14,562 bases of DNA from a virus (IMGVR_UViG_2703718773_000013); one strand, 5' to 3'. Positions 3,315 through 9,087 are shown, counted from the stretch's first letter. Program-made: numbers and translations. The notes: generated from the letters alone by a model not told the origin.

Positions 3315-3513
3315 CGTAACCTGTCGGATCGCCGGAAAGGACCCACAAAATGATAATAATTATCATCTACATATCACAACGTGCGTGTACGCCATCAAAC
3401 CACGTCAAATAATCAATTATGACGCAGGTATCGTATTAATTGATCCGCATCAACTTAACGTAAAAACAACTTCAGACAATACAAATCAGCGACACAGAAT
3501 ACGGGACAACCTC

Positions 3514-3705
3514 ATGTCAACGAAGAACAGAACCCGCAGAACAACAACCCGCAACATCCGCTTTCCTAACCAAATGATTGAACAAATTAACATCGCTCTT
3601 GATCAAAAAGGGTCCGGGAATTTCTCAGCCTGGGTCATTGAAGCCTGCCGTCGGAGACTAACGTCAGAAAAGAGAGCATCTACATCAATCAAAAGTGATG
3701 AATAA
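3514..3705 (+). CDS. Small ribbon-helix-helix (Arc/CopG-like) protein, 63 aa
   Basis: ATG at 3514 (track ORF starts at an upstream GTG). The protein MSTKNRTRRTTTRNIRFPNQMIEQINIALDQKGSGNFSAWVIEACRRRL has a basic N-terminus followed by an R-F-P..I..AL.....S.N..V pattern typical of RHH folds. SD is weak (gggacaacctcATG). Opposite strand to the late operon. Confidence 0.5.
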   Translation: MSTKNRTRRTTTRNIRFPNQMIEQINIALDQKGSGNFSAWVIEACRRRLTSEKRASTSIKSDE

Positions 3706-3958
3706 TGAATATCCCGGTTTCTTTACCTCCCCTCCCACCCCGCACAGGACTGGCGAACGTGTGGGACAAATATGTGAGTCATAAACGCCTTATCTTCAGA
3801 AATGCAGTTGGCATCCGAACAGGACGATATTGTAACTTCACCTAATTACGAGGCATTGCAGTAGTTGAATTGTAGTTCTGTATTAGCCTGACAGTGACAG
3901 AATGCGATATTGACTCTGTCACAGGTGAAATAGTTTGAATGGTTAGCAGTTATGGCGA

Positions 3959-4165
3959 TCAGTCAACCACCAGGGAATAATCCTTCGAATTCTTATCGTG
4001 CTTCACCAACGCTGCCTCAATTGCCCTGAATGCTTCCAGAGACACTTGATGTTCTATACATGCAATTACAACATCCGGATAACTCATAGAAATGGTGCTA
4101 GTGAGCATAGTTTTTACACGGACCTGATCCAAGGATGAGTCATCAGTGTATTGATCTTTATGCAT
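3959..4165 (-). CDS. Hypothetical phage protein (right-arm ORF, 68 aa)
   Basis: ATG at 4165-4163, 68 aa [26 protein letters not shown]... Position and size correspond to the small forward ORF near the lambda right end, as recalled. Confidence 0.55.
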
Positions 4166-4460
4166 TTTGTCGCTCCATGCGTTTGCTCTTCACTTGCGGC
4201 TAAAAATATAACGTCAAATCACTCAGCATGAAAGTGTGAAAGTTTCAGCGCGTTTCCCTTACATAATCTGTCGTTTGTATTCTCTCCAGGCATACCGGAA
4301 AGACTAGGTATTGTCACACAACCAATACCACCGACTATCGAGATTTATATCTATTCGGTAATGTTTAAATATAACAAAACCCCGTAAAAACGAGGTTTAT
4401 GGGTAAATTGTATTGTTGAATAGCATCTGATAAGAAATTGATGCTAATACTATAAACACA

Positions 4461-4634
4461 CTAGATTAAATCAATCTTGATATCATAGCTTTCAAGACCA
4501 GTCATTTTTTCCCGTGCAGTAAACTGGATACTGGTAACTTCTTTCCCGGTCTTTTTCTTAAGCTCAATAATTTTTTTTGTTATATATTCAGAAATATCTG
4601 CTTCTGTTTTTGTTTTTAACTCTTCAATGTTCAT
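4461..4634 (-). CDS. gnsB: GnsA/GnsB-family small protein, 57 aa
   Basis: MNIEELKTKTEADISEYITKKIIELKKKTGKEVTSIQFTAREKMTGLESYDIKIDLI resembles my memory of E. coli GnsA/GnsB. SD aaagaggaa sits 5 nt before the second ATG (4634). The longer track ORF, with an upstream TTG/ATG, is probably not the true start. Confidence 0.75.
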   Translation of the reverse strand: MNIEELKTKTEADISEYITKKIIELKKKTGKEVTSIQFTAREKMTGLESYDIKIDLI

Positions 4635-4806
4635 CATTTCCTCTTTTAGTCTGTTATGACTTTCCTGGTACACAGTAGTGTCAATTATATGGAGCAAACG
4701 TATAAAAGATAAGATGAAACATCGCAATAATCAACATACGACAGTCTAAATTTCGCACAAACAGATAAAGATGATTATCCTTTATTATCAAGGCATTAGA
4801 ATGAAA

Positions 4807-5037
4807 TCAATTCAAGAGTCTCATTGCTGCTTCCAGAATTTCTTCTGAAGTTACATGTCGATCCGCTGCTACATAAATGACTTTATGATCTCCGGTCAGA
4901 GATGGAAACCCTGCAGCCATTACAGTGAGATGTGTTGTTTCGCCATTTGGATATTCACGCATGATGGTGTTAACTCCGGTCATCACTGGCACTACCATTG
5001 CTGGTTCAGAGTTAAAAAAAACTATTATTTTTTTCAT
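4807..5037 (-). CDS. Hypothetical small protein, 76 aa (sits where ynfN lies in Qin)
   Basis: ATG at 5037-5035 giving MKKIIVFFNSEPAMVVPVMTGVNTIMREYPNGETTHLTVMAAGFPSLTGDHKV... The track ORF begins at an upstream GTG. Lies between the gns-like and cspI-like genes. SD is weak. Confidence 0.45.
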   Translation of the reverse strand: MKKIIVFFNSEPAMVVPVMTGVNTIMREYPNGETTHLTVMAAGFPSLTGDHKVIYVAADRHVTSEEILEAAMRLLN

Positions 5038-5101: not shown

Positions 5102-5308
5102 CTTCATTTTCACTTTCTTAAATCTAACGACAGACGGCTAACATTTAAGTATTGTGAAATATTATCAAATGTAATCATCATTGATTTACAAAAGATACAT
5201 TTTGCCCCGAAAGGATTCCTGTCAGAAACATCAAAAGATGATGTTCTATACTGAGAACCATGGCAACACGGGCATCTAAAGTGAATATGGTTTGTAATAT
5301 TTTCTACC

Positions 5309-5521
5309 TCAAAGTGCCACTACATGAACAGCCGCGGGGCCTTTAGGTCCGTTCTCAATACCAAATTCGACTTGCTGATTCTCAGTTAACGTTTTGAAAT
5401 CGTTGCTCTGAATAGCTGAGAAATGGACAAACACATCTTTGCTACCATCTTTCGGCGTGATGAAACCAAAACCTTTTTCAGGGTTAAACCATTTCACTAA
5501 ACCAGTCATTTTGTTAGACAT
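5309..5521 (-). CDS. cspI: Cold-shock protein, CspA family (CspI-like), 70 aa
   Basis: [70 protein letters not shown] contains the RNP1-like KGFGFI and RNP2-like VFVHF motifs. Long upstream untranslated region, typical of csp genes. Confidence 0.9.
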
Positions 5522-5889
5522 CATTATTACCTTTTGAAGAAGTGAGCCCTTGGGCAGAATGGTCCGAAAAAAATATCAGAGAGAAAAACCAACAAGGAAA
5601 TCTCAAGAGGTACAAATAATAAAATTATAACAATGACTGCTTCAGATAATTTTGTAACAAACCAGAACACCATTAACGCATGATTAACCAACCATAGCAA
5701 GGATTACTTTTGTAAAGAAAAACACACGAATGAAACAATAGCTTTATTTATTAATAAAACGTGTCATTCTGTCTAATGACCTTTTATCTTACCCTTAAGA
5801 TTTCAAGGATTTTGACTCATGGAAGAGTCCTTTTTATTTAAATTTCACATTCAGCGCTAAAAATAATCCGATTTAATGTTAATCTACAT

Positions 5890-6911
<1,022 letters not shown>

Positions 6912-7016
6912 GGATATTTATCAGGATTTATCGGTTTCTGAACCCTGGATATGTTTATCTGTCCCGGCCTGTTGAATCAGGCGGGGAAAAGGTAAAGACA
7001 ATCAAGAGGATTATTT

Positions 7017-7289
7017 ATGGACAATAACACCATTTCTCTACAGGAGTTGCTCGACTGCATTTCAAAGCTTCGGGATGATGTAAATGCCCTCACTGTTGCA
7101 TTTTCATATTTGGCCTTATCAATTCCCAGAGAACAAATGCAACCAACACTGGCATCGCTCCTGCTTGAATCACGCAACCCCAAATGGTCCCAGGAACAAC
7201 AAAATTCTTTCAAGTGGCTGGCGGCATTACTGGAAGAAAAATATGCTGGTAAAATTACCATTTCGGTGGAGTCTTCAGAGAATCAGTAA
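7017..7289 (+). CDS. Hypothetical 90 aa protein, antisense to the late operon and convergent with the ydfR-like gene
   Basis: ATG at 7017 preceded by a strong SD aagagga with 6-nt spacing. Balanced, helix-like composition. Its 3' end overlaps the ydfR-like gene by 35 bp. No clear sigma70 promoter found upstream. Confidence 0.4.
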   Translation: MDNNTISLQELLDCISKLRDDVNALTVAFSYLALSIPREQMQPTLASLLLESRNPKWSQEQQNSFKWLAALLEEKYAGKITISVESSENQ

Positions 7290-7599
7290 TTCTTCCTGGT
7301 AGCTTTCCTTTGTAGGTTATCCACACATTCTGCGCCTCTAAAATTACGGGGCGCTTTTCCGGCGACTGCTCATCCCCTTCACATAACCCGGCTGCAACTT
7401 CCAGGAAGACCTGTCTGATGCTCCTTCTGGCTGCTGCCTCATAAAACTCCAGCGCGGCACCTTCAACACGGTCCAGCGAGATGTCCAGGTCAAAAATTTC
7501 ACCGTCAAAGCGTTTTTTGTCCCTTAATGCTACAGTTACCGCAACTTTATTCTCAAAATTGCGGATCCCTTTCACAATCAGTTCATAGTTTTGTGTCAT
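7255..7599 (-). CDS. YdfR-like protein (DUF1327-type as recalled), 114 aa, between holin and endolysin
   Basis: ATG at 7599-7597 with SD ggagag 9 nt upstream; begins 5 nt after the holin stop. Protein MTQNYELIVKGIRNFENKVAVTVALRDKKRFDGEIFDLDISLDR... The Qin prophage has ydfR at this position (from memory). Confidence 0.65.
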   Translation of the reverse strand: MTQNYELIVKGIRNFENKVAVTVALRDKKRFDGEIFDLDISLDRVEGAALEFYEAAARRSIRQVFLEVAAGLCEGDEQSPEKRPVILEAQNVWITYKGKLPGRITDSLKTPPKW

Positions 7600-7603
7600 T
7601 GAA

Positions 7604-7819
7604 TTACTCTCCCCGTGCAACCTTACGCTTGTCTTCTTTAATCTTGAAATAAAGGTTTGTCAGGTACGTCAGCAAGCCAAATACCAGACTACCCAGCACA
7701 CCGATTGCAGCCCACTGTGACGGAGTTACTTTATCGAGTAACTGCAATGCCCAGAAACCAGCATTACCAGCCGATGTGCCATAGGCGATACCTGTTGTTA
7801 ACTTATCCATTGATTTCAT
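7604..7819 (-). CDS. S: Class II holin, phage-21 S21 pinholin type with dual-start motif
   Basis: 71 aa [71 protein letters not shown]. The Met1-Lys-Ser-Met4 dual start and two transmembrane segments match S21 as recalled. SD ggtgagg upstream. Confidence 0.9.
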
Positions 7820-8006
7820 ATCCTCACCCCGATGTACACAGATGGTGCAATATGTTTGAAAAGATCGGAGTCTATGGGGTAGTTTTTATAGCAAACGTTG
7901 TTCTCAACGGCGCTAAAAAACAGACACATTAAAAATGTGGGTAATTATTTTAAAAGAAAATCATATATTAAATAATAATACGAGATATGTTTTCATATTT
8001 AGTGTA

Positions 8007-8037: not shown

Positions 8038-8208
8038 ATGTCAGAACGTAAAGACTCAAAATCACGCCGTAATTATCTCGTTAAATGTTCCTGCCTAAAC
8101 TGCACCCAAGAGTCAGAACACAGTTTTTCAAGAGTACAAAAAGGTGCCCTTTTGATCTGCCCTCATTGCAACAAAGTATTCCAGACAAATCTTAAAGCTG
8201 TAGCTTGA
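8038..8208 (+). CDS. Small zinc-ribbon protein, 56 aa
   Basis: ATG at 8038 with SD aggaaa. Protein MSERKDSKSRRNYLVKCSCLNCTQESEHSFSRVQKGALLICPHCNKVFQTNLKAVA has two Cys pairs (CSCLNC ... CPHC) and a basic N-terminus. The track ORF extends further 5'. Confidence 0.45.
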   Translation: MSERKDSKSRRNYLVKCSCLNCTQESEHSFSRVQKGALLICPHCNKVFQTNLKAVA

Positions 8209-8290: not shown

Positions 8291-8571
8291 AATATTGTGG
8301 TACTTTTTGTGGGAGTCATCCACTTACGCACTTTGTTTTGCTATGCCAGCAGTTAGCTTCTGCTGTAAAACTATTCATGCAGCAAACCTGCACTTCACCA
8401 CAATGGTTAGCATACTTTTCCTGATTAAGTTATTGCCAAATATGCTGGCCATTGTTTCATGTATTGGACCTCCTTACTCTTTATTAAAGAGATCCAATAT
8501 TCACCACTCTGTCTGTATCTCCACTCAGGCATCAGCCTTCTTCGTTATCGTATACAGACAAACTATGAATT

Positions 8572-8787
8572 TTAATCAGTAATTATGACATTTGCTGCTG
8601 CAGGACCTTTAGCACCACTCTCTACAGAGAAGGTAACCTTTTGACCTTCAAATAAGGTTCGATAATTATCATTCTGAATCGCAGAAAAATGCACAAACAC
8701 ATCTTTACTACCATCAACAGGAGAAATAAAGCCAAAACCTTTATCAGCGTTAAACCATTTTACTAAACCAGTCATTTTATTTGACAT
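8572..8787 (-). CDS. cspB: Cold-shock protein, CspA family (CspB-like), 70 aa
   Basis: [67 protein letters not shown]... Divergent from the cspF-like gene, as in Qin (from memory). Confidence 0.9.
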
Positions 8788-9087
8788 TCTACATTCCTTA
8801 ACTTGAGCCTTTCGGCATAAATGGCTTGTATAACAGAAACGACTTCGTACTTAATTGGAGAGACTCAAAGAAGGAATAAGTGAATAACACCTGAAATGAG
8901 AACTGCTTTAGTAAACTACTTCGTATATCGTCTGTTCTTCAAACCGACGCAATCATTAACGCATAGTTGAACATATGAAGCAATGTTTATTTTAGACATC
9001 CAGCCATCTTCAACCCCATCAAAAAACTATAGCTTTCTTCAGGAACGTGTGTATAGTGCGCCAAGTTATCAGTATTAAGGAATTTTT

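Follow-up and report, generated by a model that had tools for sequence, protein, structure and literature searches.

Gene X, a 90-codon reading frame on the + strand of a 14,562-nt stretch of viral DNA (IMGVR_UViG_2703718773_000013, analysed at its full length and referred to as the window), is a real gene; it is conserved and encodes a small, helical protein. It is probably a genuine moron-type cargo gene, seated in the gap between the ydfR-like and endolysin genes of a Qin/Rac-type lambdoid prophage and opposite the Q-dependent late operon. X would form its own transcription unit, running from a weak candidate promoter at 6927-6955 through a 5' stem-loop to a terminator-like hairpin at 7332-7358. 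Its product would be made in the lysogen and silenced after induction by convergent late transcription, as for lambda bor; an expression of X in lysogens only is plausible.

X had already been annotated as a hypothetical protein, and it falls into PHROG 2411; the members of the family that belong to the core chromosome, outside any phage, are added here. X is present in roughly a fifth of the complete E. coli genomes, yet its family lacks any Pfam, NCBIfam or structural assignment. The anonymous "hypothetical protein" thereby becomes a defined target, namely a real three-helix protein that is probably cargo and not a lysis, toxin-antitoxin or defence component. Morons antisense to the late operon are common, and X is not surprising for prophage biology.

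Position of gene X among the late genes

The genes that surround X in the window are arranged as follows.

7017-7289, + strand: gene X, 90 aa, ATG start (ORF listing, PGAP CDS, PHROG 2411)
7255-7599, - strand: YdfR-family gene, 114-aa variant (Pfam DUF1327, E 9e-43), stop codon at 7255-7257
6378-6911, - strand: rrrQ-type lysozyme gene (Pfam), the next late gene downstream of the insertion
7604-7819, - strand: essQ class II holin gene (Pfam), the first gene of the lysis cassette
5890-6381, - strand: rzpQ (RefSeq annotation)

The 801 bases around X are 100% identical to prophages of many E. coli genomes, O55:H7 CB9615 among them, and the RefSeq annotation of the identical CB9615 sequence points to a Qin-like lambdoid prophage. 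On the - strand, the Q antiterminator gene (ydfT) is followed by cspB, essQ, the YdfR-family gene, rrrQ, rzpQ and cspI, and then by terminase and portal genes. The product of the YdfR-family gene matches Pfam DUF1327 with 144.9 bits (cut-off 25) over residues 1-112. Its residues 1-70 are homologous to K-12 YdfR, whereas residues ~71-114 form a different tail that ends in RITDSLKTPPKW, a motif common to small genes of other prophages that we call B. The order rrrQ(-), X(+), ydfR(-), essQ(-) is kept in 84 of 85 E. coli-type loci, and the single exception is an Stx2k phage with a different holin and M15 endolysin cassette to the left. The first-pass annotation had described a 90-aa frame opposite the late lysis operon, with a 3' end that overlaps the YdfR-family gene; the ORF listing, with the ATG start, confirms the frame, and the overlap indeed measures 35 nt.

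In every phage context examined (five, including the window), X lies antisense within the late region and beside lysis genes, although its exact position varies. It is found just upstream of the holin gene in C. freundii and C. meridianamericanus, between Rz and the terminase genes in the prophage type of L109 and L091 (directly after Rz in L109), and between two lysis cassettes in the Stx2k phage. Unrelated morons are known to cluster in the late region around the lysis genes, and bor, iraM, csp genes and ynfU occur at the loci of X. Host-like stress genes crowd the prophage region of the window (cspB, cspF, cspI, gnsB and ynfN), with iraM present in relatives.

Several other features of these loci were recorded along the way. 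An ynfU-like gene for a small zinc-binding protein with CxxC motifs lies at 8038-8208 (+), between essQ and cspB, and is another opposite-strand cargo gene of the same late region. Two Rfam cspA thermoregulator elements, at 8509-8948 (-) and 5282-5678 (-) (157 and 114 bits), cover the leaders and genes of cspB and cspI, so that prophage cold-shock genes flank the lysis cassette. The IraM anti-adaptor gene is located on the opposite strand upstream of the holin gene in the Stx2k phage and in an ETEC prophage (L097 4069-4392, +, and L101 4152-4487, +), and both of these loci also carry X. Within rzpQ, a frame at 5934-6230 (-) with a lipobox-like LTSC motif corresponds to an Rz1/rzoQ-type o-spanin; K-12 has it annotated as rzoQ, whereas RefSeq does not annotate it in the identical O55:H7 sequence (L001). 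In one IMG/VR prophage, ydfR is broken by an insertion of ~1.3 kb (L012 ~3424-4732, equivalent to window ~7438), whose size is typical of an IS3-family element such as IS629/IS1203.

A three-helix protein family in prophages and chromosomes

X corresponds to RefSeq WP_001315200.1, a "hypothetical protein" called as a CDS by PGAP in identical genomes. It matches PHROG 2411 with an E value of 4.9e-57, residues 1-90 aligning to positions 1-90 of the 90-position profile, and that profile also recognizes the relatives from Citrobacter, Serratia and metagenomes. Searches of Pfam, NCBIfam and PADLOC with X gave no match, and a Pfam scan of all 51 family members returned scattered sub-threshold noise only. 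The earlier statement that X could not be assigned to any family is accordingly right for curated families and wrong for PHROG 2411. The family is restricted to Enterobacterales and has a three-helix architecture, and PHROG 2411 gives it no function. A literature search retrieved no paper on the X family or on X expression, and nothing relevant for DUF1327/holin.

Close homologues of X (n = 65) come only from Escherichia and Shigella (E. coli, E. albertii, S. flexneri and E. ruysiae), keep the length of 90 aa and share 66-99% identity. More distant relatives came from two rounds of searching, first with a profile against 1.8 billion cluster representatives and then, with a wider alignment, by a word-indexed search. 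These proteins of 81-106 aa with 28-60% identity occur in Enterobacterales, in the genera Citrobacter, Serratia, Sodalis, Chania, Chimaeribacter, Gibbsiella and Acerihabitans. A scan of IMG/VR with the divergent family member P0033 gave no match.

Residues Y31, L32 and E51 are invariant throughout the family, which displays an A-F-S-Y-L-A-F core motif. The conserved core extends over residues ~8-77, and inside the Serratia group residues 10-75 are nearly invariant. AlphaFold2, run with the 51-sequence alignment, predicts helices at residues 8-34, 38-52 and 59-76 with a pLDDT of 82, and a disordered tail at 83-90 with a pLDDT below 50. Judged from its sequence, the protein is soluble and acidic (10 kDa, pI 4.6), with neither a signal peptide nor a transmembrane segment.

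Selection on the frame was assessed with 45 distinct haplotypes from 77 loci, comprising the window and IMG/VR prophage contigs. The pooled dN/dS of X is 0.39, compared with 0.36 for ydfR, and premature stops occur in 2 of the 45 haplotypes. Conservation of the reading frame in related prophages had been suggested as a check on the gene, and it is clearly present, with the length of the protein kept down to ~28% identity in addition to this dN/dS. Alleles that encode truncated proteins turn up fairly often in E. coli (clusters of 46-56 aa on tens of contigs), indicating that X is dispensable in many lineages.

As a rival candidate for the true gene we considered the frame 6977-7261 on the - strand, coupled to the stop of ydfR, and rejected it. 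Its third codon positions coincide with those of X, which accounts for its low dN/dS of 0.25-0.27 and means that dN/dS cannot tell the two strands apart. Taken at full length, this frame is interrupted by stops in 29 of the 45 haplotypes; in the L079 and L057 lineages it contains two internal stops, and X is intact. Its product has a Ser/Cys-rich composition, and Citrobacter harbors no counterpart of it. Interruption of this frame where X is intact, together with its lack of an equivalent in Citrobacter, identifies X as the coding strand.

The relatives outside phages offer a different view of the gene. In the chromosomes of Serratia marcescens and Chimaeribacter (Yersiniaceae) that were examined, the X orthologue is a single-copy core gene in the order pyrC-dinI-X-bssS-solA. 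It possesses its own ribosome-binding site, follows the dinI terminator and has no phage genes around it. The dinI-bssS gap of K-12, which shares this synteny, contains neither X nor a remnant of X. In another lineage, X adjoins DUF892 and DUF1883 genes and lies behind a CTATAAT -10-like box, and in Sodalis it is an isolated gene.

With low confidence, we propose as the most likely role of X that of a small cytoplasmic protein which would bind other proteins and modulate the stress or stationary-phase physiology of the host. It is the neighborhoods of the chromosomal orthologues (dinI and bssS in one case, DUF892 and DUF1883 in the other), and these only, that hint at such a role, which also fits the host-like stress genes crowding the same prophage region. 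Fold searches with X yielded generic helical matches only. The best PDB sequence-profile match, YibL, was rejected as a relative, the coiled-coil-like alignment being not significant (E 0.17).

The extra DNA, its junction and the candidate signals

Comparison of the window with cassettes that lack X delimits the DNA that these cassettes do not have, and comparison of the haplotypes reveals three common SNPs at its junction with ydfR.

6973-7259: DNA absent from otherwise colinear cassettes, consisting of 44 nt of leader and X codons 1-81
7255-7289: 3'-end overlap of X and ydfR, 35 nt, with three common SNPs among the haplotypes
7267: SNP, silent in YdfR, V84A in X
7279: SNP, silent in YdfR, E88G or E88V in X
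7283: SNP, D to G in YdfR, silent in X

The X-less cassette of RIVM_C037134 is homologous to the window up to 6972 and again from 7260, which defines the extra DNA as 6973-7259; in that of O157:H7 TX 376-2, homology reaches 6955 and resumes at 7264, giving 6956-7263. Both cassettes encode the same 114-aa YdfR, with the lysozyme gene following after ~50-60 nt. K-12 Qin is likewise devoid of X; its ydfR (103 aa) abuts rrrQ with an ATGA overlap, and homology to the window stops at ~7391 (ydfR codon ~70) and resumes ~10 nt before the rrrQ ATG. Since K-12 Qin and O157 have the same cassette without X, the gene behaves like moron-type extra DNA. The cargo status proposed in the first-pass annotation is thus sustained as far as extra DNA is concerned, X being missing from the K-12 Qin, O157 and RIVM cassettes, which are otherwise homologous.

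The whole X module is present in ~1130 of 5426 complete E. coli genomes, and ~1500 more have the ydfR tail only. Carriers include BL21 (in its Rac remnant, WP_000370546.1), CFT073 and O55:H7. The GC content of 6973-7259 is 42.5%, a small difference from the 45-51% of the flanks. A separate observation concerns the X-less O157:H7 locus L098, where the lysozyme-ydfR spacer contains the 9-nt direct repeat AGTCTTCAG twice, 10 nt apart (1486-1515). This repeat, at the place X would occupy, may be a deletion or slippage scar.

X codons 82-90 with the stop codon, as well as the hairpin at 7332-7354, are located in DNA common to the X-less cassettes, in which the stretch of codons 82-90 codes for the end of YdfR. 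The V84A and E88G/V substitutions are radical changes in the tail of X, a part that is not conserved among distant homologues; the Citrobacter protein ends at residue 83. As codons 82-90 lie in shared DNA, are predicted to be disordered and tolerate radical changes that are silent in YdfR, the 35-nt overlap most likely arose as a side effect of the recombination junction and not by design as a regulatory device.

The following signals accompany X.

7004-7010, + strand: Shine-Dalgarno sequence AAGAGGA (GAGG core at 7006-7009), 6 nt before the ATG
6955-6995, + strand: stem-loop in the presumed 5' leader of X, -23 kcal/mol, z = -3.7
6927-6955, + strand: weak sigma-70-like promoter candidate, TTTATC-17 nt-TATGTT, the best by PWM (score 6.8)
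7332-7360, + strand: terminator-like hairpin with a 7-bp G+C-rich stem and a 9-nt loop, then UUUUCC

The Shine-Dalgarno sequence had been described as near-consensus, which is slightly generous for what is nevertheless a good site at the spacing given. Its GAGG is kept in all 9 upstream-region variants that occur among the 45 E. coli-type haplotypes. The stem-loop contains an inner stem (6962-6971 paired with 6978-6987) that closes a 6-nt loop, TTGAAT. The Citrobacter and L091 copies of X also have a stem with a 6-nt loop, 31-70 nt upstream of the gene, and these stems vary on both sides (CAGTG/CACTG versus CTGTG/CACAG). No Rfam family was detected in 6900-7400.

A scan of 6700-7900 for the sigma-70 consensus gave no + strand site. 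The PWM score of the candidate at 6927-6955 corresponds to the ~99.94th percentile of all window positions, which implies dozens of equally good chance sites in the window. A CCTGGWTAT motif that contains the candidate -10 recurs upstream of the Citrobacter X copies, and this candidate would place the transcription start at the foot of the stem-loop. Inspection by eye of the sequence that precedes X, and of that before the Serratia and Chimaeribacter orthologues, revealed no LexA box.

At the other end of the gene, the terminator-like hairpin is situated 43 nt past the X stop, inside the ydfR coding sequence, and is followed by four U residues only. The terminator scan did not call the hairpin at 7332-7354 because its loop exceeds 8 nt. 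Clearer elements composed of a hairpin and a U-run follow X in L091 and L103.

Further elements in this region are noted for their own sake. A terminator-like hairpin with a T-run at 6874-6892 (+), in the part of rrrQ that encodes the N-terminal signal anchor and just upstream of X, would shield X from + strand transcription arriving from upstream. The strongest - strand sigma-70-like site of the region lies inside ydfR at 7556-7527 (TTGAGA-18-TAGCAT, 9/12 matches, PWM 10.8) and, if active, would drive Q-independent antisense transcription through X towards rrrQ. The window has a single perfect DnaA-box consensus, TTATCCACA at 7317-7325 (+), against ~0.1 expected by chance. It falls within the part of ydfR that encodes the tail, past the X stop and ahead of the terminator-like hairpin. 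This box is kept in the X-less RIVM cassette, and the O157 cassette has TTATCAACA. In three other phage contexts, an A-run and then a hairpin are found on the X strand upstream of X (L097 ~2823-2890, L084 ~2840-2880 and L091 ~4840-4870). These elements adjoin the next late gene and resemble intrinsic terminators when read on the late strand; the window lacks such an element because rrrQ starts immediately.

Alternative readings and known systems

The alternatives have to be weighed together with the convergent partner of X. In other phages this is the small gene B, which encodes 62-63 aa beginning with MTLEQ and ending in [KR][IL]TG[SD]LxxPxK and overlaps the 3' end of X by 14-20 nt. Just 11 clusters, from Citrobacter, Salmonella and metagenomes, make up the tiny B family, and B was not found alongside the chromosomal X genes. 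The tail motif [KR][IL]T[GD][SD][LI]xxPx is common to YdfR-114, to the B genes of L091, L109 and C. freundii L103, and to a fusion in C. meridianamericanus. The latter, L084 3239-3955 (-), is a 238-aa late protein with B-like C-terminal ~90 residues and an N-terminus that is loosely YdfR-like (27% identity by MAFFT, no Pfam match), which suggests that B-like tails are repeatedly fused onto YdfR-like proteins. Two broader relationships were tried and discarded. BLASTP between YdfR and the 238-aa Citrobacter or 62-aa L091 partner finds the ~17-aa tail only, and B against the YdfR-114 tail (26% identity over 42 aa, E ~7) is not significant beyond that tail. As the shared tail is the same DNA as the 3' end of X, the linkage between X and its partner is a physical one.

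A prophage of Salmonella enterica shows what a partial loss looks like. Its convergent B is intact (L106 4001-4192), and X is reduced to its last ~24 codons (QQNSFKHLAKELEERLGSSITIL), which are joined to the former upstream region in a deletion remnant at L106 4158-4421 (-). A YdfR-like 83-aa gene (phrog_2735/30780) lies next, upstream of the holin gene. A HicA/HicB pair is encoded 1-3 kb from B/X, between Q and the lysis cassette, in this prophage (L106 1073-1710) and in Citrobacter (L084 4087-4770). Its presence there, unrelated to X, marks the region as a cargo hot spot.

We think it unlikely that the phage's own life cycle, and not the host, benefits from X, for instance through lysis timing or the activity of YdfR or B. 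All five phage contexts do put X directly beside lysis genes, and a binding of K-12 YdfR to RNase E's catalytic domain, reported in one source (PMC13232886), may bear on such a role. X is nevertheless encoded on the strand opposite the late genes and therefore cannot be co-expressed from pR'. The Serratia and Chimaeribacter orthologues have no phage genes around them, and the late region receives unrelated morons (bor, iraM, csp genes and ynfU) at the same loci.

A further possibility, which we consider distinctly unlikely, is that X and B together form a conserved cassette whose lysogenic member, X, and late member, B or YdfR-B, exclude each other in expression, and that X is a host stress protein adapted by phages. 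Here, convergent transcription would enforce the exclusion, with B fused to YdfR in E. coli, and the arrangement recurs in at least four unrelated prophage backbones, antisense within the late operon and beside the lysis genes, with a conserved 5' stem-loop. The C-terminal peptide [KR][IL]TG[SD]LxxPxK would be a portable element grafted onto different late proteins, and X might feed the state of the host into lysis or into RNase E-linked functions of YdfR or B.

There is little to recommend an X whose product is mainly RNA, in which the + strand transcript would act as an antisense of the late mRNA, from the 3' end of ydfR or B onwards, and damp leaky expression of lysis genes in lysogens, the frame itself being secondary. 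Each of the phage contexts does preserve a convergent overlap of X with the late transcription unit, and a conserved 5' stem-loop and downstream hairpins are at hand. Yet the protein itself is conserved down to 28% identity with its length kept, and it has a strong ribosome-binding site and a confident fold; moreover, the chromosomal orthologues have nothing antisense to them, and the overlap with ydfR amounts to only 35 nt.

Highly improbable, in our judgment, is a toxin-antitoxin or anti-phage defence module composed of X and its convergent gene (YdfR-114 here, B elsewhere), a pairing of which the first-pass annotation had been reminded by the layout. Phage X is repeatedly convergent with a partner, with 3' overlaps of 14-35 nt and a tail motif common to the partners, and HicAB is encoded nearby in Citrobacter and Salmonella. 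Against this, PADLOC-DB v2 contains 0 families matching X or YdfR at E <= 1, X has no Pfam match at all, YdfR matches DUF1327 only and NCBIfam returns nothing, leaving no toxin, antitoxin or defence assignment for either. X and ydfR are convergent and not co-transcribed. YdfR exists without X in K-12 and O157. The converse, X without YdfR, is seen in the prophages of Citrobacter and in others, and the core gene of Serratia and Chimaeribacter stands alone, lacking a B beside it. Salmonella retains an intact B beside a remnant of X, whereas E. coli retains an intact X with B only as the tail fused to YdfR. That B and X each persist alone argues against a toxin-antitoxin or defence pair, and the suggestion is not supported.

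Hardly any weight can be given to X being a non-functional leftover or an annotation artefact, either a chance antisense frame or a decaying remnant, as might be supposed from the premature stops in 2 of 45 haplotypes, several truncated E. coli clusters, a promoter that lacks the consensus and an opposite-strand frame, 6977-7261, that is largely open in close relatives too, because deep homologues exist in six or more genera, the Serratia-group core is nearly invariant, dN/dS is 0.39, and the opposite frame is broken in lineages with an intact X and absent in Citrobacter.

The reading of X as moron-type cargo, which we prefer, can be placed among known systems. Like type II toxin-antitoxin and compact defence systems, X is small, resides in a prophage and belongs to a tightly packed gene pair. 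Unlike type II toxin-antitoxin systems, X and ydfR are convergent instead of forming an operon, lack family matches and do not obligatorily co-occur. The chromosomal setting invites a comparison with DinI and BssS (80-95 aa), as the Serratia and Chimaeribacter orthologue of X is of similar size and forms a separate gene between theirs, and DinI homologues are also carried by prophages of the type that bears X. X differs from both in having no detectable homology to them, the link being one of neighborhood only.

The closest parallels are lambda bor and the prophage iraM gene. The promoter of Bor and its expression in lysogens are documented. X has no sequence or fold relationship to either of them, and unlike Bor, a secreted lipoprotein, it has no signal peptide or transmembrane segment. 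An own terminator is a trait of morons, and the terminator-like hairpin of X sits in DNA of the X-less cassettes too. Related prophages place Bor (Salmonella L106) and IraM (the Stx2k and ETEC prophages), both morons known to be expressed in lysogeny, in the same kind of niche as X. Like bor and iraM, X is a single small opposite-strand gene beside lysis genes and flanked by hairpins, and, as with them, it is present in some, not all, of otherwise homologous prophages.
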